A stretch of 64,000 nt of DNA, taken from NCBI GenBank assembly GCA_025454795.1, contig JALONT010000007.1:66750-130749 (forward strand), written 5' to 3'. Below, in pieces: positions 2,434-37,397 of the stretch. Numbering within the stretch: position 1 is the first letter of the stretch; each line of letters begins with the position of its first letter. Source of the stretch: Bacteroidales bacterium (GTDB lineage Bacteria; Bacteroidota; Bacteroidia; Bacteroidales; VadinHA17). A program made the position numbers and the translations under genes. The notes below the pieces were generated by a model. It did not search any database. It was not told where the DNA came from and saw only the letters and a list, made by a program, of their open reading frames with translations.

Positions 2434-2468
2434 CTTGCCACACGCCGTACACCACACACCGAACACCG
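2434..2468. repeat. Degenerate heptamer tandem repeat (5 units) in the queA leader
   Basis: cttgcca/cacgccg/tacacca/cacaccg/aacaccg. Confidence 0.6.
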
Positions 2469-4626: not shown

Positions 4627-4738
4627 GCCCTTTATGCCTTTGCGCCTTTACGCCTTTGCGCCTTTACGCCTTTACGCCTTTGCGCCTTTACGCCTTTACG
4701 CCTTTGCGCCTTTGCGCCTTTACGCCTTTACGCCTTTA
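4627..4738. repeat. Octamer tandem repeat (CGCCTTTR, about 14 units)
   Basis: Directly visible. The last unit overlaps the rarA stop codon. Confidence 0.95.
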
Positions 4739-8390: not shown

Positions 8391-8464
8391 ACCGCAAACC
8401 TCAAGCCGCAAACCTCAAGCCGCAAACCTCAAGCCGCAAACCTCAAGCCGCAAACCTTAAACCT
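8391..8464. repeat. 14-bp tandem repeat (GCCGCAAACCTCAA x5; two heptamers per unit)
   Basis: Directly visible between convergent genes, next to the stop codon at 8468. Confidence 0.95.
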
Positions 8465-30822: not shown

Positions 30823-33756
30823 TCAATATCTCTTATCAGGTTTGATTGGAAGCTTTGCCAGTTTTTCGACCTCGATTGAAGGGTACCCGAACTCTTCGAC
30901 AACTTTTCCAAGGATAAGGTATGTACCTGCACCTTTGAAAGGATACTGTTTCAGCGATTGCGGAAAATGAGTTGTATCAAAGAAACTGCCTTCAGGATCA
31001 ATAAAACAACCAAAATTCATCCATTCCTTTTTTATAGTTTTTATGTATTTGATTGTCACCAGGTGACCGACCATCCTGACACTCTTCCCTTTATGCTTCA
31101 TCATTTCACGTGCATTGATCTCACCACGATATAATGTTTCAAGCATATCAAACCATGTCATTGATACAGGGAAACTTAACAGCTCTATCTCATCATAAGC
31201 ATCATCCAGTTTATCCTGTTCCAGGTCGGGGAGGGTAAACTCTTTTACGGGAGAGGAGAAGAGAGGCCTCATCGGTTCGGGTTTGCATTTATTTATCAGC
31301 ATATGGGCTTCCCAGAGTAACTCTGCCTTTTTCTTCCCGGTAAACCTGAATGCTCCGACCCTGATAAGGAGGATCACCTGTTCCAGTCCCGGACTGACCC
31401 GTGTTATAAAGTCATTCAGATCAATGTAGGTTCCTTCAGCACAACGGTTCACTTCAATCGATGCGGCAATCTTATCTTCGAGGTTCATAATATGAATAAA
31501 CCCGAGGTATATATCTGTTCCATAAATGGTTGTCCTGTAATTGCTTTTATTAACACAGGGTTGCTGTATTGAAGCTCCGTATCTTTTTGCCTCGTGAACA
31601 TATACCCATGTACGGTAAAACCCTCCGAAATTATTAATGACGGCAACCATGAATTCAAGAGGGTAGTGGGCTTTCAGATAAAGGCTCTGGAAGCTCTCAA
31701 CCGCATACGATGCCGAGTGTGCTTTTGAGAATGAATAACCTGCAAACGATTCTATCTGCCGCCATACCTCTTTTGTAAGTTCATCACTGTATCCCTTTTC
31801 GTGGCAGTTTGAGAAGAATTTGTCGATGATCCGCTTCATCTCCTGTCTGGACCGGTACTTGCCACTCATTGCCCGGCGCAGGGTGTCGGCATCAGAAAGA
31901 TCGAGACCTGCAAAATGATGGCACACCTTAAGTACATCCTCCTGGTAGACCATAACACCGAAGGTCTCCTCAAGTTGTTTTTTCATTACCGGATGTAAGT
32001 ACTTGAATTTGTAAGGATTATGGAATCGATAGATATATTCCCTCATCATCCCGGAGCGGGCAACACCCGGTCGTATTATCGAACTTGCAGCTACAAGCGT
32101 TGTATAATCATCGCACTGAAGTTTTTGCAGAAGTCCGCGCATCGATGGACTCTCGACATAAAAGCAGCCTTTTGTTTCGCCGTTTTTCAGATACTCCTTT
32201 ATTTTCAGGTCGCTTTTGAATTTCTGTATTGCATGGATATCAACGTCAACTGAACGGTTACGGAGAATTATCTCGGCGCTTTCCCGGATATGGCCGATAC
32301 CCCGTTGACTGAGTATATCAAGCTTCTCAAAGCCGATCTCTTCAGCAGTGTACATATCCCATTGGGTAGTCGGAAATCCTTTCGGAGGCATGTCCAGTGC
32401 GGTATAGCTTGATACCGGTTCTTCTGATATAAGTATGCCGCCGGCGTGTATGCTTCTCATGTTGGGAAAGTCGGCTATCCTGTGACCGGTTGAAAAGATA
32501 ATGCTGGTTATCTCATTGCGGTTTGTTTCTGATGACGGGTTATCAATCAGTGCATCAATCTCTTCTTTCGGAAGACCATGAACTTTTCCGAGCTCCCTGA
32601 CTATTGACTTGCCCCTGAAGGTGCTAATTGTTCCGAGAAGTGCCGTATGACCGTAACCATATCTTTTAAATATATAATCGATAACCTCATCACGTTCTTT
32701 CCATGAATAGTCGATGTCGAAGTCGGGAGGACTGCTCCTTCTCGGATTTATGAACCTCTCAAAGTAAAGGTTTAGATCAATAGGGTCAACATTAGTTATT
32801 TTCAGGCAATAAGCAATAATGGAATTTGCTCCGCTTCCCCTTCCTACATGGTAGAAACCTCGTGCCATTGAGTAGCGGATAATGTCCCATGTAATGAGAA
32901 AATATGCTGAAAATCCAAGTTTGTCGATAATTTCAAGTTCATGCTTTATTCTTTTTTTTGCCTCACTGTTCTGGTTGCCATATCTGTATTTCATTCCATC
33001 CCAGGCAAGTTTCTCAAGTAGGAGTTTGTCGTCGTACCTGCTTGCTGAAAAGATCTTTTTGTTTTTATGACTTTTAAAATCAAAGGATATGTTGCAATCT
33101 TCCTGTAGTTTATTTGTATTGTCGATTATTCCGGGGTACTCTGAAAATATTTTCCTGAAGTGATCCGGAGAATACGGGAATTCATTCTCCCCGGCAAATT
33201 GCCATGGCTTCAGGTGGCTGAGCAGAATATTATTGTCGACTGCCCTGAGACTTTTATGAATGAAGATATCAGTATTGTCTGCAAATGTCACCGGATGCAT
33301 GATTACCATTTTATTCCTGTCGGAAGGAATAAGTGTAAGGATCTTGTTTATTTCTCCGGTTTTTACACCTATGCGTTCATTATCAAATAGTTTACGATCA
33401 GGATATTTCGAAAGAGAGTAAATAATGTACGATTCTGAGAATTGCGGAGCAGGGAAGGGTATCTCTGTTTTTTCGAAATTACGCTTTGACAGAAATTCAT
33501 TCAGCTCACGCATACCTTTGTTATTCCGGGCTATTCCGGTGTATTGCAACTCATTGTCATTTCTGAATTCAATGCCGGCAACCGGTTTAATATTGTTTTT
33601 GATACATTCTCCCGCGAATTCAGGTATTGCAGTAGAGTTATTGATGTCGGTAAGTGCAATGGTTTCAGCTCCTGCAGCAGCGGCTTTCAATACAAGCTGT
33701 TCAGGAGACATTGTTCCGTAGCGGAGACTGTAATATGTGTGACAATTTAAGTACAT
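30823..33756 (-). CDS. dnaE2: Error-prone DNA polymerase III alpha (DnaE2)
   Basis: PHP domain CHTYYSL..LTD, GRGSGANS, PPDFDID, YQEDV, FAGYSFSKAH. Short (977 aa) and next to dinB and a LexA-like gene. Confidence 0.88.
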   Translation of the reverse strand: MYLNCHTYYSLRYGTMSPEQLVLKAAAAGAETIALTDINNSTAIPEFAGECIKNNIKPVAGIEFRNDNELQYTGIARNNKGMRELNEFLSKRNFEKTEIPFPAPQFSESYIIYSLSKYPDRKLFDNERIGVKTGEINKILTLIPSDRNKMVIMHPVTFADNTDIFIHKSLRAVDNNILLSHLKPWQFAGENEFPYSPDHFRKIFSEYPGIIDNTNKLQEDCNISFDFKSHKNKKIFSASRYDDKLLLEKLAWDGMKYRYGNQNSEAKKRIKHELEIIDKLGFSAYFLITWDIIRYSMARGFYHVGRGSGANSIIAYCLKITNVDPIDLNLYFERFINPRRSSPPDFDIDYSWKERDEVIDYIFKRYGYGHTALLGTISTFRGKSIVRELGKVHGLPKEEIDALIDNPSSETNRNEITSIIFSTGHRIADFPNMRSIHAGGILISEEPVSSYTALDMPPKGFPTTQWDMYTAEEIGFEKLDILSQRGIGHIRESAEIILRNRSVDVDIHAIQKFKSDLKIKEYLKNGETKGCFYVESPSMRGLLQKLQCDDYTTLVAASSIIRPGVARSGMMREYIYRFHNPYKFKYLHPVMKKQLEETFGVMVYQEDVLKVCHHFAGLDLSDADTLRRAMSGKYRSRQEMKRIIDKFFSNCHEKGYSDELTKEVWRQIESFAGYSFSKAHSASYAVESFQSLYLKAHYPLEFMVAVINNFGGFYRTWVYVHEAKRYGASIQQPCVNKSNYRTTIYGTDIYLGFIHIMNLEDKIAASIEVNRCAEGTYIDLNDFITRVSPGLEQVILLIRVGAFRFTGKKKAELLWEAHMLINKCKPEPMRPLFSSPVKEFTLPDLEQDKLDDAYDEIELLSFPVSMTWFDMLETLYRGEINAREMMKHKGKSVRMVGHLVTIKYIKTIKKEWMNFGCFIDPEGSFFDTTHFPQSLKQYPFKGAGTYLILGKVVEEFGYPSIEVEKLAKLPIKPDKRY

Positions 33757-33764
33757 ATTATAAA

Positions 33765-33937
33765 GTGGCTCAGAGGTTCAGTGGCTCAGAGGCTCAGTGG
33801 CTCAGAGGCTCAGTGGCGCAGTGGCGCAGTGGCTCAGTGGCGCAGTGGCGCAGAGGCAAAACTGGTTATTGATAATTGTAAATGCCACTCCGCCTTTACG
33901 CCGTTATGCCGTTGCGCCGTTGCGCCGTTGTGCCGTT
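33765..33937. repeat. Two opposed octamer arrays: (GWGGCKCA)x12, a short AT-rich spacer, then (YGCCGTTR)x7
   Basis: 33765-33860 and 33883-33937. Together they fill the dinB-dnaE2 intergenic space. Confidence 0.9.
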
Positions 33938-35209
33938 CTAATGTCCAACTCCATACATCATATATCCCTTCAACCTTTCTTCCATCATTTCCTGCTCTTT
34001 TACAGCACTTTCGAGCTGTTTGAGGGCTTTTTCCTCTTTTTCGGTAATAGTCATAACTCCGGCGGCTCTCCGCACTGCATCGCGTCCGAAACGTTTTCTG
34101 AGCTTATCCATAGCCATATAAAGACTTACCTTCTCCGGTGTATCATCAAACATATCGAGCTGCTGAACACCTCTTACCAGGTGACTGAATCGCACACCAA
34201 TGAGCCTGATAAGCATTCGCCGCTGGTAGAGTCTTGCAAAAAGCTCTTTTGCGATATCAGTGAGCACATGGTCGAAAGAGGTATATGGTATCCTTTTCTG
34301 CAGGGTATGTGTATCAAAATCTGAATACCTTATTTTTACCGTGAGACAGGAGGTTAGCTTTTCCTGCTTTCTAAGTTCATAGGCTATCTTTTCCACCATG
34401 CTTACCAGGAGCTGGTTAAGCCTTACCATATCGGTGGTGTCTTTTTCAAATGTATGCTCGGTGCTTATTGATTTCTGTTCCGAATAGCTGATCACAGGAG
34501 TGGAGTCTATTCCGTTGGCTCTTTTCCATACTTCAATGCCGTTTTTACCCATAAGCTTTTCGAGCATTTCGGCAGGGATATTCCTTAAGGTGAATATGGT
34601 CGCTATCCCCATAGAACGGAGAACATGATAAGTCTTTTGTCCGATCATCGGGATCTTGCTTATGGAGAGCGGGTCGAGGAAGGGGAGGACTATATCTTTT
34701 TTTACTTCGATCTCTCCGTTTGGCTTTGCCTCGCCGGTCGCGATCTTTGATACGGTCTTGTTTATGGAAAGCCCGATGGATATTGGCAATCCTGTCTCCT
34801 TTATAATATACTGGCGCAGTTCATGTGACCATTGATAGCAACCGTAGAAGCGGTCCATTCCGGTGATATCGATATAGTGCTCATCGATCGATGATTTCTC
34901 ATAAAGAGGCGCTCTCCCGGCAATTATCTCTGTCACTATGTTTGAATAGTTGCTGTAAGCCTCCATGTCGCCGCGGATTATTATGGCATCGGGACACATG
35001 TTTCTGGCCATCTTCATCGGCATTGCTGAGTTTACACCGTACTTTCTGGCTTCATAACTGCAGCTTGATACCACACTGCGGTCCGATATGCCGCCTATTA
35101 TCACCGGCTTACCGGCAAGCCTGCTGTTATTAAGCCTTTCAACCGATACGAAAAAGGTGTCGAGGTCAAGATGCAGTATGGAACGGTCTATGTTGCCTGC
35201 CAGGAACAT
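33938..35209 (-). CDS. dinB: DNA polymerase IV (Y family)
   Basis: HLDLDTFFVSVE, SYEARKYGV..AMP, SIDEHY, SKIATGEAKPNG, RLIGVRFS. Confidence 0.93.
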   Translation of the reverse strand: MFLAGNIDRSILHLDLDTFFVSVERLNNSRLAGKPVIIGGISDRSVVSSCSYEARKYGVNSAMPMKMARNMCPDAIIIRGDMEAYSNYSNIVTEIIAGRAPLYEKSSIDEHYIDITGMDRFYGCYQWSHELRQYIIKETGLPISIGLSINKTVSKIATGEAKPNGEIEVKKDIVLPFLDPLSISKIPMIGQKTYHVLRSMGIATIFTLRNIPAEMLEKLMGKNGIEVWKRANGIDSTPVISYSEQKSISTEHTFEKDTTDMVRLNQLLVSMVEKIAYELRKQEKLTSCLTVKIRYSDFDTHTLQKRIPYTSFDHVLTDIAKELFARLYQRRMLIRLIGVRFSHLVRGVQQLDMFDDTPEKVSLYMAMDKLRKRFGRDAVRRAAGVMTITEKEEKALKQLESAVKEQEMMEERLKGYMMYGVGH

Positions 35210-35214
35210 AATGA

Positions 35215-35291
35215 AGTGACTAGAGTTACGAGTGACTAGAGTTACGAGTGACTAGAGTTACGAGTGACTAGAGTTACGAATGACTAGAGTT
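35215..35291. repeat. 16-bp tandem repeat AGTGACTAGAGTTACG, about 4.8 units (downstream arm)
   Basis: Four perfect units plus one partial unit. Confidence 0.95.
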
Positions 35292-35306
35292 GCTATTAAC
35301 TTTAGC

Positions 35307-35672
35307 TCACGCCTGACTATTTAAGTTTTTACCAATTGAAGCAAAAATTGCCAGCAGTTCATCGGCCTCAATGATGATTCCTTTAAGTTTTTCGTTTTCG
35401 ATCCATTGTAAATCCTTGACAATCTCCAACCAATAACATGTTTCACTGGCTTCACTTTCACAGATTTTAATTTTACTCTTAAAATCCGCTCTGCTTCTGG
35501 CTCTGACTGCCTCACGGTAATTTGCACCAATGCTAGTTCCGGACTTAGTCATTTGATTCCTTATTACCTTTCCTTCAACACTGTTAGTCAGAAGTCCAGA
35601 TAATTTAATGATTCCTATTGCAAAAGCTTTTGTCCTCTTCTCAAGCTTCCTGCTAAACTCCTTGTTTTCCAT
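35307..35672 (-). CDS. Four-helix-bundle protein (23S rRNA IVP / TIGR02436 family, Avd-like fold)
   Basis: LEKRTKAFA, QMTKSGTSIGANYREA, SRADF..KIKICESEASETCYWLE, EADELLAIF. Confidence 0.9.
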   Translation of the reverse strand: MENKEFSRKLEKRTKAFAIGIIKLSGLLTNSVEGKVIRNQMTKSGTSIGANYREAVRARSRADFKSKIKICESEASETCYWLEIVKDLQWIENEKLKGIIIEADELLAIFASIGKNLNSQA

Positions 35673-35678
35673 ATATTT

Positions 35679-35709
35679 TAACTTTAGTCACTCGTAACTC
35701 TAGTCACTC
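35679..35709. repeat. Inverted copy (about 2 units) of the 16-bp repeat (upstream arm)
   Basis: TAACTTTAGTCACTCGTAACTCTAGTCACTC is the reverse complement of the 35215-35291 array with one mismatch. Confidence 0.92.
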
Positions 35710-35740
35710 CAAACTTTTTTCTTAAATAATTTGTTTGTTT

Positions 35741-35799
35741 CAAAACTATCTTTTACTTTTGATTAAAAATTAATCAATATTCTGATTACAATATAATCA
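35741..35799. promoter_or_regulatory. Divergent -7 promoters plus two TGATTA-N5-TAATCA operators
   Basis: TAGTTTTG (minus, 35748-35741); TACTTTTG (plus, 35754-35761); palindromes at 35760-35776 and 35783-35799. Confidence 0.7.
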
Positions 35800-35808
35800 A
35801 TTTTTATT

Positions 35809-36636
35809 ATGTACTTCGCAGCCAACATAAAATTTTTAAGAAAAAGAAGGGACAGAACACAGGATGATGTTGCTGTTGCCCTTAATCTGAAACGTTCTAC
35901 CCTGAGCGGGTATGAGAACGGGGTGGCCCAGCCGGGAATTGAAATACTGGTTTCATTTTCCAGGTATTTCAACATGTCCATCGATACCATGCTTAAGATC
36001 GATATGTCAAAACTGTCGGAAAGCCAGCTCGGCGAACTCGAGAGGGGATATGACGCATATATTAAAGGCAGCAACCTGAGGGTTCTGACTACAACAGTAA
36101 ATTCAGATAACAGGGAAAATATTGAACTTGTCCCGGAAAAGGCAAAAGCCGGATATGCTACAGGCTATGCTGATCCTGAATATATCGGTGAACTGCCAAG
36201 ATTCCGTTTACCTTTTCTTTCCGAAAAAAGGAAGTACAGGACATTTCAGCTGAAGGGTGATTCAATGCTTCCCATACCCGACGGTTCATGGGTTACAGGC
36301 GAGTTTGTACAGGACTGGAACGAAATAATCAGCGGAAAAGCTTATGTTGTCTTTACCATTAACGATGGTATAGTATTCAAGGTTGTAGAGAATAACCTTA
36401 AAACTGACGGGAAACTGGTGCTCTATTCACTTAACCCCATGTATGAACCTTATGAAGTTCATATTAATGAGGTTAAGGAATTATGGAAATTCGTGAACTA
36501 CATCAGCAGTGAGCTTCCGGAACCTGTAATGCCCGAAAAACAGCTGATACAGGCAGTTGCAACCATGAAAAACGACCTTGCAAGAATAAAGGCGAAGATC
36601 GGTAAGGATATCTCCGATATAAATGAAGTAAACTGA
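35809..36636 (+). CDS. LexA-like repressor (XRE HTH plus S24 peptidase)
   Basis: N-terminal HTH (TQDDVA..RSTLSGYENG), AKAGY Ala-Gly cleavage site, KGDSMLP catalytic Ser, VFK catalytic Lys; divergent from dinB-dnaE2. Confidence 0.88.
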   Translation: MYFAANIKFLRKRRDRTQDDVAVALNLKRSTLSGYENGVAQPGIEILVSFSRYFNMSIDTMLKIDMSKLSESQLGELERGYDAYIKGSNLRVLTTTVNSDNRENIELVPEKAKAGYATGYADPEYIGELPRFRLPFLSEKRKYRTFQLKGDSMLPIPDGSWVTGEFVQDWNEIISGKAYVVFTINDGIVFKVVENNLKTDGKLVLYSLNPMYEPYEVHINEVKELWKFVNYISSELPEPVMPEKQLIQAVATMKNDLARIKAKIGKDISDINEVN

Positions 36637-37250: not shown

Positions 37251-37375
37251 CTCTGTGTTCCTCTGTTTCTTCTCCTGCTTTCGCTGAAGTTTCAGCAGGC
37301 AAAGATGTGTTAACTCTGTGTAACCTGGAAGAACTTACACAGAGTGACACAGAGAAGACACAGAGTCACACAGAG
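37251..37375. repeat. Opposed CTCTGTG / CACAGAG arrays (10-11 bp period) with a 31-nt hairpin insertion
   Basis: Left arm 37251-37323, right arm 37335-37375, insertion 37275-37305. Confidence 0.85.
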
Positions 37376-37397
37376 TCTAAGATATAAATACTTTAGT

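Follow-up and report, generated by a model that had tools for sequence, protein, structure and literature searches.

The locus discussed here lies in a 64-kb window (the whole stretch of DNA that was analysed); this DNA occurs in wetland and freshwater habitats. It comprises two DNA polymerase genes that form an SOS-type operon, a divergent regulator gene and, in the leader of the operon, a small gene of the PF05635 family enclosed by two arms of tandem repeats (Table 1). We refer to the small gene together with its arms as the cassette. The divergent gene encodes a protein that is, as far as its domains tell, a non-canonical LexA-like SOS repressor. The two GATTA-N5-TAATC palindromes in the divergent promoter region are probably the operators of this HTH-S24 repressor, and in congeneric loci the same block is kept, as judged by eye, at the start of the spacer. 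The regulator gene, its divergent orientation to the error-prone polymerase genes and the dyad-N5 palindromes place the locus with the Bacteroidetes non-canonical LexA SOS module. The motif TAGTTTTG, which an earlier note on this DNA had located at 35748-35741, is indeed present. It fits the Bacteroidetes -7 consensus, TAnnTTTG, and is a candidate promoter.

Table 1. Features of the dinB locus, with positions in the window
Feature	Position	Strand	Evidence and remarks
HTH_3 + Peptidase_S24 protein, 275 aa, divergent	35809..36636	+	Pfam E 6e-13 and E 9e-09
Two GATTA-N5-TAATC palindromes	35784-35798, 35761-35775	.	Divergent promoter region; sequence
Motif TAGTTTTG, candidate promoter	35741..35748	-	Sequence reading
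Promoter-proximal (5′) arm	35679..35715	-	About two 16-mer units; TRF rows 35679-35709 and 35680-35715; inverted-repeat pairs I1-I4
10-nt direct repeat CTAAAGTTAA	Copy 1, 35678-35687; copy 2, 35296..35305	-	Copies bracket the ORF; sequence reading
PF05635/TIGR02436 "23S rRNA intervening-sequence protein" gene, 121 aa	35307..35672	-	Loop cargo; profile matches
Distal (3′) arm	35215..35301	-	16-mer x4.8 (35215-35291) plus a degenerate unit to 35301; direct-repeat family D1
Y-family DNA polymerase (DinB-like), 423 aa, directly downstream of the cassette	33938..35209	-	IMS E 4e-45, IMS_C E 7e-27
ORF-less tandem-repeat hairpin, dinB-dnaE2 spacer	33764..33937	.	(AGTGGCKC)n 33764-33857, (CGCCGTTG)n 33891-33937, 33-nt loop; TRF
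DnaE2-like DNA polymerase III alpha paralog, 977 aa, last gene of the operon	30823..33756	-	Pfam PHP, DNA_pol3_alpha, DNA_pol3_finger, HHH_6

Architecture of the cassette and its protein

Both arms are built of one 16-mer, placed in opposite orientation on either side of the 121-aa gene. The main part of the distal arm is a 77-nt array (35215-35291) of AGTGACTAGAGTTACG in 4.8 copies (98% matches, TRF score 147). The promoter-proximal arm, 31 to 37 nt long, holds the reverse complement of this unit in 1.9 to 2.2 copies (35679-35709/35715; TRF). Reading the spacings off the sequence gives 6 nt from the 5′ arm to the ATG of the PF05635 gene, 15 nt from its stop codon to the distal arm, and 5 nt from the end of the distal arm to the polymerase ATG (35209). 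These boundaries, the three gaps and the inverted 16-mer had all been described in the earlier note, and they hold in the sequence, in the TRF output and in the inverted-repeat search. The search also finds four alternative registers of arm pairing (33-37 nt arms, 89-94% complementarity, 388-434 nt apart). When the transcript 35735..35180 is folded, the arms form a 27+5-bp closing stem that ends 4-5 nt upstream of the dinB AUG (MFE -154.5 kcal/mol, z = -5.9; none of 100 shuffles was as good). The duplex of about 30 bp in several registers that had been proposed is borne out by the search and the predicted fold. When all 3.29 Mb of the genome were scanned with exact 11-mers, the arm pair ranked second (53 seeds) among inverted repeats 200-1600 nt apart. 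The strongest (69 seeds) belongs to another PF05635 gene, and the third has 24 seeds. This ranking uses the 11 clusters with at least 6 seeds, as a threshold of 3 seeds gave mostly chance 13-mers.

The assignment of the 121-aa product to PF05635/TIGR02436 is confirmed by profile matches well above the cut-offs (PF05635, E 3e-18, 66.4 bits vs 33.8; TIGR02436, E 1.6e-24, 86.2 bits vs 24), and its sequence matches PDB 2rld_A (E 5e-18). The AlphaFold model (pLDDT 96.1; helices 2-25, 32-56, 61-88 and 93-119) is an up-and-down four-helix bundle, as in the family members with known structures (Foldseek with the model, TM 0.80-0.89 to 2RLD and 0.74-0.84 to 2GSC). The kinship with the Avd fold, also suggested earlier, is seen as a TM of 0.70-0.77 to 4DWL (Foldseek) at 12-13% identity. 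To our knowledge, PF05635 has solved structures and no known role outside diversity-generating retroelements (DGRs). The family has been described as carrying the motif GxxRxxxSxxxNxxE (PMC3936711, as excerpted). In the protein discussed here S47, N51, and E54 of this motif are present, with K43 at the R position and Q40 at the G position, and an alignment of 16 Bacteroidales members has Q40, E54, and E77 invariant and S47 nearly so. The solved relative 2RLD has five chains per crystal entry, and another relative, Xcc0516, is given as a homopentamer in the accessible text of PMC4990558. Among congeners, dN/dS is 0.07 (L013/L039, dS 0.50) and 0.09 (L014/L024, dS 0.82). As judged from these ratios, the protein is functional and retained by purifying selection. 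None of five paralogs from the genome matched a PADLOC defence model.

The stem had been thought to consist of locus-specific repeats, which is wrong. The arm word family (AGTGMCTARAGT / GGAGTACTTAAAGT) is dispersed: it accounts for 26 of the 549 tandem arrays in the 3.29-Mb genome, lies on both sides of a 68%-identical paralog from a different contig, and recurs in the same spacers of congeners with or without the ORF. Among the 68 close array pairs of the whole genome, 18 are ORF-less hairpins with a score of at least 12. Several of the largest repeat families of the genome each embed one PF05635 gene, namely family 0 (133 arrays), 1 (50), 3 (27), 4 (26), and 7 (9), and a 39-array CACAGAG family embeds a GxxExxY nuclease gene instead. 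Inverted arm-family arrays also flank an ordinary gene for a 254-aa membrane protein (contig C31), and a response-regulator-like gene (contig C85) likewise lies between inverted arrays of the arm family, with a score of 26. The spacer between dinB and dnaE2 carries an ORF-less hairpin of a repeat family different from that of the cassette arms; its RNA folds at -68.4 kcal/mol (z -4.6) on the operon strand and at -78.7 kcal/mol (z -2.8) on the opposite strand. The genome further contains Y1-transposase-like genes, so labelled from their N-terminal sequence, that are framed by palindromes of their own.

Complementary arms, gain and loss among relatives

Whether paralogs carry such arms was a check proposed in the earlier note, and the enrichment is strong. 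In a sample of the genus, the flank-to-flank inverted score is at least 12 at 24/36 PF05635 genes compared with 2/144 shifted controls. In a Bacteroidota-wide sample (234 of the 301 genomes have PF05635), the figures are 14/30 and 1/117. On named plasmids, collected across phyla by tblastn, 9 of 12 PF05635 genes score at least 14; they come from Cyanobacteriota, Bacteroidota, Gemmatimonadota, and Alphaproteobacteria, and the arms (TAGGGAG)n/(TCCCTAC)n in Nostoc edaphicum provide an example. Within the genome studied here, 93 pairs of adjacent tandem arrays separated by 300 nt or more served as a control based on true intergenic flanks. The score reaches 12 in 4/7 pairs that enclose a PF05635 gene vs 3/86 others, and one of these three encloses a GxxExxY gene. 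At one copy in the same genome (C35:49097), the arrays to the left and right are not complementary. Scores are below 12 at 12/36 genes of the genus sample and 16/30 of the phylum sample, where short arms can be seen by eye in many cases.

The cassette sits in spacers of co-directional genes, and here it separates the first polymerase gene from the SOS-type promoter/operators. Among 41 cassettes with same-strand neighbours, 37 are co-oriented with these neighbours and 4 are opposite, and a copy between RNR genes in N. edaphicum is antisense to its operon. Given these antisense copies, read-through from the host cannot be the sole source of expression. The operons that carry the cassette type are unrelated to each other and include cas6/cas4, cmr2/cmr3, RNR genes, and positions before thiolase-like genes; on three cyanobacterial plasmids the PF05635 gene plus its arms is wedged between cas genes. 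The class would account for the "association" of PF05635 with unrelated systems, such as the association with cas loci described, in the text available, in PMC3936711.

The arm sequences turn over faster than the protein, and in most pairs at 60-65% protein identity the arms are unrelated. An arm pairs better with its own partner than with arms of foreign species only as a weak average effect (19.3 vs 12.3), which is clear in just one of seven orthologous cassettes. Mismatches in 27 arm alignments have no bias of the kind expected for RNA-level selection (46 G-U vs 59 A-C, and 112 others). These counts give no indication of selection acting on the sense RNA.

We compared the lexA-like/dinB/dnaE2 locus in 23 congeners. 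The cassette ORF is found upstream of dinB in five and between dinB and dnaE2 in two (L014 and L024); one locus has a 34-codon remnant, and in 15 the ORF is absent from an otherwise intact operon. With 7/23 intact copies in two positions and one remnant, the gene is no fixed component of the operon among relatives, in favour of the reading given in the earlier note. ORF-less hairpins of the arm word family are present in both spacers of L022 and in the dinB-dnaE2 spacer of L013, L027, and L039, and in L012 and L030 the left-arm words alone remain. The cassette decays by deletion, and what stays behind is an ORF-less hairpin or a lone arm belonging to the same repeat family. Unit numbers vary among the congeners. 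In a tree of dinB plus dnaE2, the carriers are spread over four well-supported clades, each beside a non-carrier. In the tree of the intervening-sequence protein (IVP) gene, built to tell vertical descent from movement between the two spacers, 4 of 5 inner branches are unresolved. Gain and loss are inseparable, and one ancient insertion with repeated loss also fits.

Two exact duplications delimit the unit. A 596-bp copy in another genome, G012, 94% identical, is bounded by the opening unit of the left array and the final unit of the right one, and its outer flanks are unrelated between the copies; a further genome, G049, has a 603-bp duplicate at 97.5% identity. The arms and the ORF behave as one unit in inheritance, duplication, and loss. 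Filled, remnant, and empty alleles in a single genus, together with the two duplications, form a natural series of gain and loss.

Models for the cassette

These results are probably best explained by a transposase-free cassette of the intervening-sequence (IVS) type, in which a PF05635 gene in the loop of a tandem-repeat-armed hairpin rides on the transcripts of its host operon. The reading given in the earlier note, a compact unit without a transposase that has the architecture of an ORF-bearing rRNA IVS and lies in an mRNA leader, is supported. The ORFs and Pfam domains of the unit include no transposase. The cassette would be one copy of a widespread, selfish gene-cassette class that is apparently undescribed; no published description of repeat-armed PF05635 cassettes was found in the literature.

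Such a cassette would be a semi-selfish passenger without a promoter of its own that is transcribed with the host operon, which at the dinB locus would follow DNA damage. By analogy with 23S rRNA IVSs, the arm duplex may be a substrate for RNase III, and an RNase III gene is present in the genome (contig C81). Cleavage would set the small mRNA free, and the dinB-dnaE2 mRNA would then begin at a new 5′ end. Left uncut, the stem next to the dinB AUG would be expected to hinder initiation on dinB. In this scenario dinB could be tuned through the count of repeat units, and strains could differ in their capacity for mutagenesis owing to a slippage-prone stem beside an SOS polymerase start codon. 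Spread would most likely occur by homologous recombination of the arms with dispersed ORF-less arrays of the same family, rather than by transposition, and the dispersed ORF-less arrays would offer plentiful landing pads. The complementarity of the arms would be upheld by DNA-level copying and not by selection on RNA pairs.

A further proposal, to which we give a low probability, is that the protein forms a ring in which each subunit reads roughly one tandem unit, much as TRAP recognises GAG repeats. The paralogs would co-evolve with their own repeat families, and binding to their own arms and to ORF-less arrays would drive homing of the cassette (gene conversion into same-family arrays) or act as an open/closed switch of the hairpin. 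If true, ring reading would explain both the rRNA IVSs and the short tandem, mostly heptamer, spacer arrays of many bacteria.

A related idea is that the structure belongs to the host, as a tunable, slippage-prone hairpin attenuator of mutagenic polymerases with the protein as its RNA-binding regulator, a ring that would bind the tandem units like TRAP and open or close the stem. The position of the stem end 4-5 nt before the dinB AUG, the differences in unit number among congeners, the purifying selection on the protein, and the five chains in 2RLD and homopentameric Xcc0516 (PMC4990558, in the part available) are all consistent with this idea. In Haemophilus, moreover, phase variation has been tied to heptamer repeat number, a 5′-UTR element and RNase III (2025, PMC12721329, as far as its accessible text goes). 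However, the same type of cassette occurs in unrelated operons, it is absent from 15/23 otherwise intact orthologous loci, and the arms change faster than the protein, so that they are mostly unrelated at 60-65% protein identity. We therefore regard a host device as unlikely.

Less likely again is a non-autonomous transposable element, with the arms as terminal inverted repeats for a transposase encoded elsewhere and the ORF as a passenger. The inverted termini, the patchy distribution and the sharp ends of the duplicates would fit, as would the Y1-transposase-like genes with palindromes of their own in the genome. At the locus, the longest flank-to-flank direct repeat is CTAAAGTTAA, the downstream copy of which lies inside a 29-nt stretch missing in the L013 ortholog and folds into a mini-hairpin together with the 3′ arm's first unit. 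However, bracketing direct repeats of at least 9 nt are not general (4/63 cassettes vs 3/245 controls), and the test for a consistent target-site duplication is accordingly null. In addition, the cargo is always of one protein family, and since the arms are variable arrays of many unrelated units, a single transposase could hardly recognise them.

That the inverted arms are a meaningless coincidence in a genome with arrays in most spacers is very improbable and was rejected. The abundance of arrays and the two genes on C31 and C85 speak for such filler, but complementarity is concentrated around PF05635 genes in the within-genome control (with a GxxExxY gene in one of the three other cases), the pattern is present in other phyla, and arms and ORF are duplicated together. 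Least probable, and likewise rejected, is an Avd of a DGR or a fixed DinB/DnaE2 mutasome subunit replacing ImuA: the fold is Avd-like and the gene is first in the operon, the place of imuA in imuA-imuB-dnaE2 cassettes (PMC8565304, in the portion available), but no reverse transcriptase is found near the cassette (the two RVT_1 matches of the genome are at the ends of contigs C79 and C85, none on the cassette's contig, C32), the Avd equivalog NF033474 (cut-off 80 bits) has no match to the protein at E <= 0.001 and gives 31.8 bits with a paralog, and the gene is missing in 15/23 orthologous operons and in another position in two.

Comparison with known systems

The operon resembles the Bacteroidetes SOS module (PMC8565304) in having an HTH plus S24 regulator divergent from dinB-like and dnaE-like genes and dyad-N5 palindromes. 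It differs in the palindrome itself, which is GATTA-N5-TAATC here and CTAA-N5-TTAG or GGA-N5-TCC in the published text available, and in the cassette, as the portion of that description at hand includes no four-helix-bundle gene. The protein shares the four-helix bundle with Avd (PDB 4DWL and 8UB7), and the two are placed in one superfamily in the available part of PMC10053308.

The arms recall the heptamer arrays of Xanthomonas, Nostoc, Beggiatoaceae and some Bacteroidetes (PMC4692102 and PMC4679880, both in part), which are spacer arrays often placed right before start codons. In Xanthomonas, 70-75 convergent (inverted) array pairs are reported (PMC4692102, as excerpted). The difference is that here the arrays are the arms of a gene-bearing unit; in a term search of the text available, "intervening" and "S23" do not occur in PMC4692102, nor "23S", "four helix" and "GxxExxY" in PMC4679880. 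Repeated descriptions of short tandem arrays in the spacers of bacteria have left these arrays without an explanation, and the present locus and its relatives tie PF05635 both to these arrays and to rRNA IVSs. A dispersed, short palindromic family of which a minority of copies enclose a gene is also found in REPIN-RAYT and MITE systems, and the ORF-less copies of the cassette family resemble non-autonomous derivatives. In contrast to those systems, the cassettes enclose a gene for something other than a transposase, use many unrelated tandem units to build their arms, and have no target-site duplication.

There is a close likeness to the 23S rRNA IVSs of Coxiella and Leptospira, which share the protein family and in which terminal inverted repeats pair into a stem that loops out the ORF. 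According to the accessible text of PMC4990558, the Coxiella IVS has a 28-bp terminal stem, within which RNase III cuts, an S23p ORF looped out by this stem, and two to three tandem heptamers of strain-variable number in its 5′ region. The arm duplex described here, with about 30 bp paired, is similar in length, and short tandem units of variable copy number in the stem region are common to both. In Coxiella, the excised IVS RNA is labile and the ORF is decaying and probably untranslated (PMC4990558, same portion), so that the IVS analogy is no guarantee of expression; the ORF here, in contrast, is under purifying selection. RNase III cleavage has been demonstrated for the rRNA IVS (PMC4990558, in the part available), whereas for the cassette it would follow by analogy. 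The cassette also differs in its setting, the 5′ leader of a protein-coding operon instead of an rRNA gene (Rfam finds no rRNA in the 64-kb window), and in taking its arms from a genome-dispersed repeat family that includes ORF-less hairpins. The rRNA IVS would then be one niche of a larger gene-in-a-hairpin class that colonises operon junctions without a transposase.

The repeat-framed gene upstream of dinB

The cassette studied here, an open reading frame of the PF05635/TIGR02436 family (IVP) enclosed by inverted tandem-repeat arms, precedes the Y-family polymerase gene dinB (see the table). Its distal arm consists of 4.8 copies of the 16-mer AGTGACTAGAGTTACG (98% matches) and its proximal arm of 1.9-2.2 copies of the reverse complement, as detected by TRF, and a repeat search found four registers, 33-37 nt long with 89-94% complementarity, in which the arms can pair. 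The figures that an earlier note gave for the locus were all correct when checked against the sequence, TRF and the repeat search. Folding of the RNA 35735-35180 predicts that the arms form a 27+5-bp closing stem (MFE -154.5 kcal/mol; z = -5.9, 0/100 shuffles equally stable), the 3′ strand of which stops 4-5 nt upstream of the polymerase AUG. The spacer between dinB and dnaE2 holds paired inverted arrays with no gene in the loop (an ORF-less hairpin), composed of two 8-mer arrays, (AGTGGCKC)n/(CGCCGTTG)n, which belong to a repeat family other than that of the cassette arms. On the operon strand this hairpin has regular 2-nt internal loops (-68.4 kcal/mol), and on the opposite strand the pairing is continuous via G-U pairs (-78.7 kcal/mol).

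Features of the dinB locus and of other repeat-framed loci and arrays in the studied genome (C, contig; other positions are those of the window)
Feature	Position	Strand	Basis or remark
HTH_3 + Peptidase_S24 protein, 275 aa	start 35809	+	Pfam domains
Divergent promoter region, two GATTA-N5-TAATC palindromes	35761-35798	- (reading order)	sequence
Motif TAGTTTTG	35748-35741	-	sequence
Proximal arm, 31-37 nt	35715/35709-35679	-	TRF; ends 6 nt before ORF
121-aa ORF	35672-35307	-	PF05635
Distal arm, 77 nt	35291-35215	-	TRF; 15 nt after ORF, 5 nt before polymerase gene
Y-family polymerase gene, 423 aa	35209-33938	-	Pfam IMS, IMS_C
ORF-less hairpin, dinB-dnaE2 spacer	33764-33937		two 8-mer arrays
DnaE2-like gene, 977 aa	33756-30823	-	after 181-nt spacer
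Other spacer arrays	4629-4738, 8392-8457, 37337-37376, 2438-2467		part of the 549 arrays
GxxExxY/PF13366 gene (L070)	C15:57011-57494		E 4.8e-42
ORFs, 144-157 aa	C66:4736-5397, C26:10069-11139, C79:38718-39383		own GC-rich palindromes
Small ORFs, 81-102 aa	C22:6149-7182, C25:34918-35534		short inverted repeats, 3-5 seeds only
Membrane-protein gene, 254 aa	C31:5367-6398		long arrays of arm word family

The 121-aa protein matches PF05635 with 66.4 bits (cut-off 33.8), TIGR02436 with 86.2 bits (cut-off 24) and PDB entry 2RLD at E 5e-18. Its structure model, based on a 16-sequence alignment, has four helices (pLDDT 96.1), and in the Foldseek order 2RLD (TM 0.80-0.89) and Xcc0516 (2GSC; 0.74-0.84) are followed, in third place, by the DGR protein Avd (4DWL; 0.70-0.77), which has a similar fold. 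A link between the family and Avd is also drawn in the part of PMC10053308 that deals with it. The Avd equivalog model gave no match to the protein, the only two reverse transcriptase matches genome-wide lie at contig ends away from the locus, and none of the five paralogs tried matched a PADLOC defence model. In the two pairs with unsaturated dS, the dN/dS of the IVP is 0.07 (at dS 0.50) and 0.09 (at dS 0.82); DinB in the second pair has 0.03 at dS 1.06. The cassette protein is under purifying selection. The gene shares its orientation with the genes beside it: among 55 cassettes with two callable neighbours, both lie on the same strand in 37, both on the opposite strand in four, and 14 are mixed.

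Inverted arms around PF05635 genes

PF05635 has ten matches in the studied genome, of which two are interrupted by internal stops, and direct reading places most of the ten between short tandem repeats whose units on the two sides are reverse complements of each other. We scored flank-to-flank complementarity by comparing 200 nt upstream with the reverse-complemented 200 nt downstream (ungapped, +1/-2; the inverted score). Within the genus (these ten genes and the best match from each of 29 congeners, 36 with two usable flanks) the score was at least 12 in 24/36 genes vs 2/144 control windows displaced by 650-900 nt. Across Bacteroidota, where 234/301 genomes carry PF05635, 14/30 drawn loci reached 12 vs 1/117 controls, and most of the loci scoring below 12 have, by eye, shorter arms right at the ORF ends. 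A tblastn search of named plasmids gave 33 records, and nine of the 12 examined scored at least 14: Nostoc edaphicum (31; (TAGGGAG)n arms, between RNR genes), Gemmatirosa (28), Anabaena sp. 90 pANA02 (26), Pseudanabaena pPg_01 (24), Geminocystis (22), Azospirillum (21), Stanieria (15), Picosynechococcus (14) and Riemerella (14). The Calothrix PCC 7716 copy and two Nostoc PCC 7120 copies were below this threshold.

Since the shifted windows are mostly coding DNA, a fairer within-genome control was added, consisting of 93 neighbouring TRF array pairs at least 300 nt apart. Complementary pairs (score at least 12) made up 4/7 of those around PF05635 genes vs 3/86 of the others; a GxxExxY (PF13366) gene lies inside one of these three. 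When the whole genome was scanned with exact seeds, the inverted repeats around two PF05635 genes came out strongest of all those that enclose a gene (69 and 53 seeds; the next has 24). The pattern is general, not local, and the paralogs are strongly enriched for inverted arms, a point that the earlier note proposed to check.

On the plasmids of Anabaena and Pseudanabaena (L106, L108) the gene with its heptamer arms lies between cas6 and cas4, and on that of Picosynechococcus (L111), again with heptamer arms, between cmr2 and cmr3. Enrichment of the family in cas loci is described in a section of PMC3936711; this reported CRISPR-Cas "association" may reflect passive insertion into operon junctions.

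Other small genes in the studied genome are framed as well. GxxExxY/PF13366, a nuclease family, is a second family with cassette-like framing (three genes), and its C15 member lies between inverted CACAGAG-type arrays. The N-termini of the C66, C26 and C79 ORFs resemble those of IS200/RAYT-type Y1 transposases, which suggests REPIN-RAYT-like systems beside the repeat-armed cassettes; those of the C22 and C25 ORFs we take to resemble GIY-YIG nucleases.

Dispersed repeat families and the allelic series

After merging, tandem arrays in the genome number 549 (24,131 bases), with periods of 7, 14 and 21 as the commonest group; clustered on their 6-mer content, they fall into families of 133, 50, 39, 27, 26 and so on. 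The arms of the studied cassette are members of the 26-array family, to which the arms of a paralog with 68% identity, located at the C35 contig end, belong as well; the repeats are therefore dispersed, and the description of them as locus-specific was wrong. Families 0, 1, 3, 4 and 7 each embed at least one PF05635 gene, and the CACAGAG family (39 arrays) embeds a GxxExxY gene. Of the array pairs with less than 100 nt between them, 68 in all, 18 are ORF-less hairpins (inverted score at least 12) and none is a direct-orientation pair scoring at least 10. At loci without shared outer flanks, mean arm similarity is 0.15 for 11 pairs with 65-80% protein identity, 0.058 for 24 pairs with 50-65% and 0.028 for 578 pairs below 50%, so that arm sequence tracks protein relatedness over short distances only.

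Units among the other arrays in the window include CCTTTACG (x13.8), a perfect 14-mer (x4.7) and ACACAGAGTG (x3.9; CACAGAG family). The ordinary membrane-protein gene on C31 has (TAGAGTTTGGAGTGAC)n on its upstream side and (TACTCTAAG)n on its downstream side; inverted arrays of one family are thus not exclusive to cassette genes.

With DinB as query, the operon was recovered from 29/41 related genomes, and 23 congeneric loci were read. The search for empty alleles, proposed in the earlier note, was successful: the ORF is absent from 15/23 loci and reduced to a 34-codon remnant in one (L020). It lies upstream of dinB in 5/23 (L013, L018, L025, L039 and the studied locus, L011) and between dinB and dnaE2 in 2/23 (L014, L024; 72% identical to the studied protein). 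The same palindrome block opens every spacer inspected. A complete ORF-less hairpin of the arm word family occupies both spacers in L022, and L013, L027 and L039 carry one between dinB and dnaE2; in ORF-less hairpins a few bases (...AAAGTTAAAAAACTCTAAG...) link the arms, at the ORF position of filled alleles. Left-arm words alone remain in L030 and in the closest relative, L012 (92% DinB identity). Because the remnant and the solo arms exist, loss by deletion is real. The carriers are scattered across four clades of the dinB+dnaE2 tree, all well supported and each adjoining a non-carrier. Independent gains may have occurred as well; a 357-column IVP tree, with four of its five inner branches open, did not separate them from loss.

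Small elements of several kinds make the lexA-dinB spacer a hot spot. In other alleles (L014, L015, L016, L021 and L017, L019, L038), unrelated palindromic inserts of 100-200 nt take the place of the cassette; one kind is built round CCCCC...GGGGG hairpins, and the other begins ATTCGGAC and includes GCAATGAC/GTCATTGC. In L027 (the G012 ortholog), the stretch examined upstream of dinB contains no lexA-like gene, and a long (CACTTTAGG/CACTTTAGT)n arm-family array stands immediately before dinB, by an apparent transposase 3′ end.

Spread, proposed working and relation to known elements

Arms and ORF move as one piece. The related genome G012 carries a pair of copies at a distance of 2 kb, with 94% identity over 596 bp; the match begins with the first left-array unit and ends with the last right-array unit. 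The outer flanks are unrelated, one copy coming after the stop codon of one gene and the other after another gene. A second case is G049, where a 603-bp unit has a duplicate with 97.5% identity at a distance of 5 kb. Consistent target-site duplications were not found, with flank direct repeats of at least 9 nt in 4/63 cassettes vs 3/245 controls. A local peculiarity of the studied locus is the 10-nt direct repeat CTAAAGTTAA on either side of the ORF, and its downstream copy lies within a 29-nt stretch missing from the L013 ortholog. As the preferred route, we suggest that the cassette may spread by recombination of its arms with ORF-less arrays of the same family, with which the existence of empty hairpins and the absence of target duplications are consistent.

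Selection at the RNA level left no sign in 27 arm alignments (871 Watson-Crick pairs, 46 G-U, 59 A-C and 112 other mismatches). The lack of a G-U vs A-C bias argues for a process that keeps the arms complementary by acting symmetrically on DNA; candidates would be inverted duplication, template switching and arm-arm conversion.

Searches of CC-licensed PMC and bioRxiv found no paper that frames non-rRNA PF05635 genes with inverted tandem repeats, and the novelty of the repeat-armed class is limited to that literature. A term search of two array papers (PMC4692102, PMC4679880) found no mention of the family. Among the closest known systems is the Coxiella 23S rRNA intervening sequence (IVS). 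According to the portion of PMC4990558 that describes it, a 28-bp terminal stem holds the S23p ORF in its loop, RNase III cleaves inside this stem (in vitro and RACE data), and the 5′ region carries two to three tandem heptamers, the number of which is strain-dependent. Given this analogy and the RNase III encoded in the studied genome, the cassette can be read, in line with the earlier note, as an element of this kind whose host RNA is an mRNA. Its transcription would start at a host promoter, here one with probable SOS-type operators, and its stem would probably be cleaved by RNase III, as in the Coxiella IVS.
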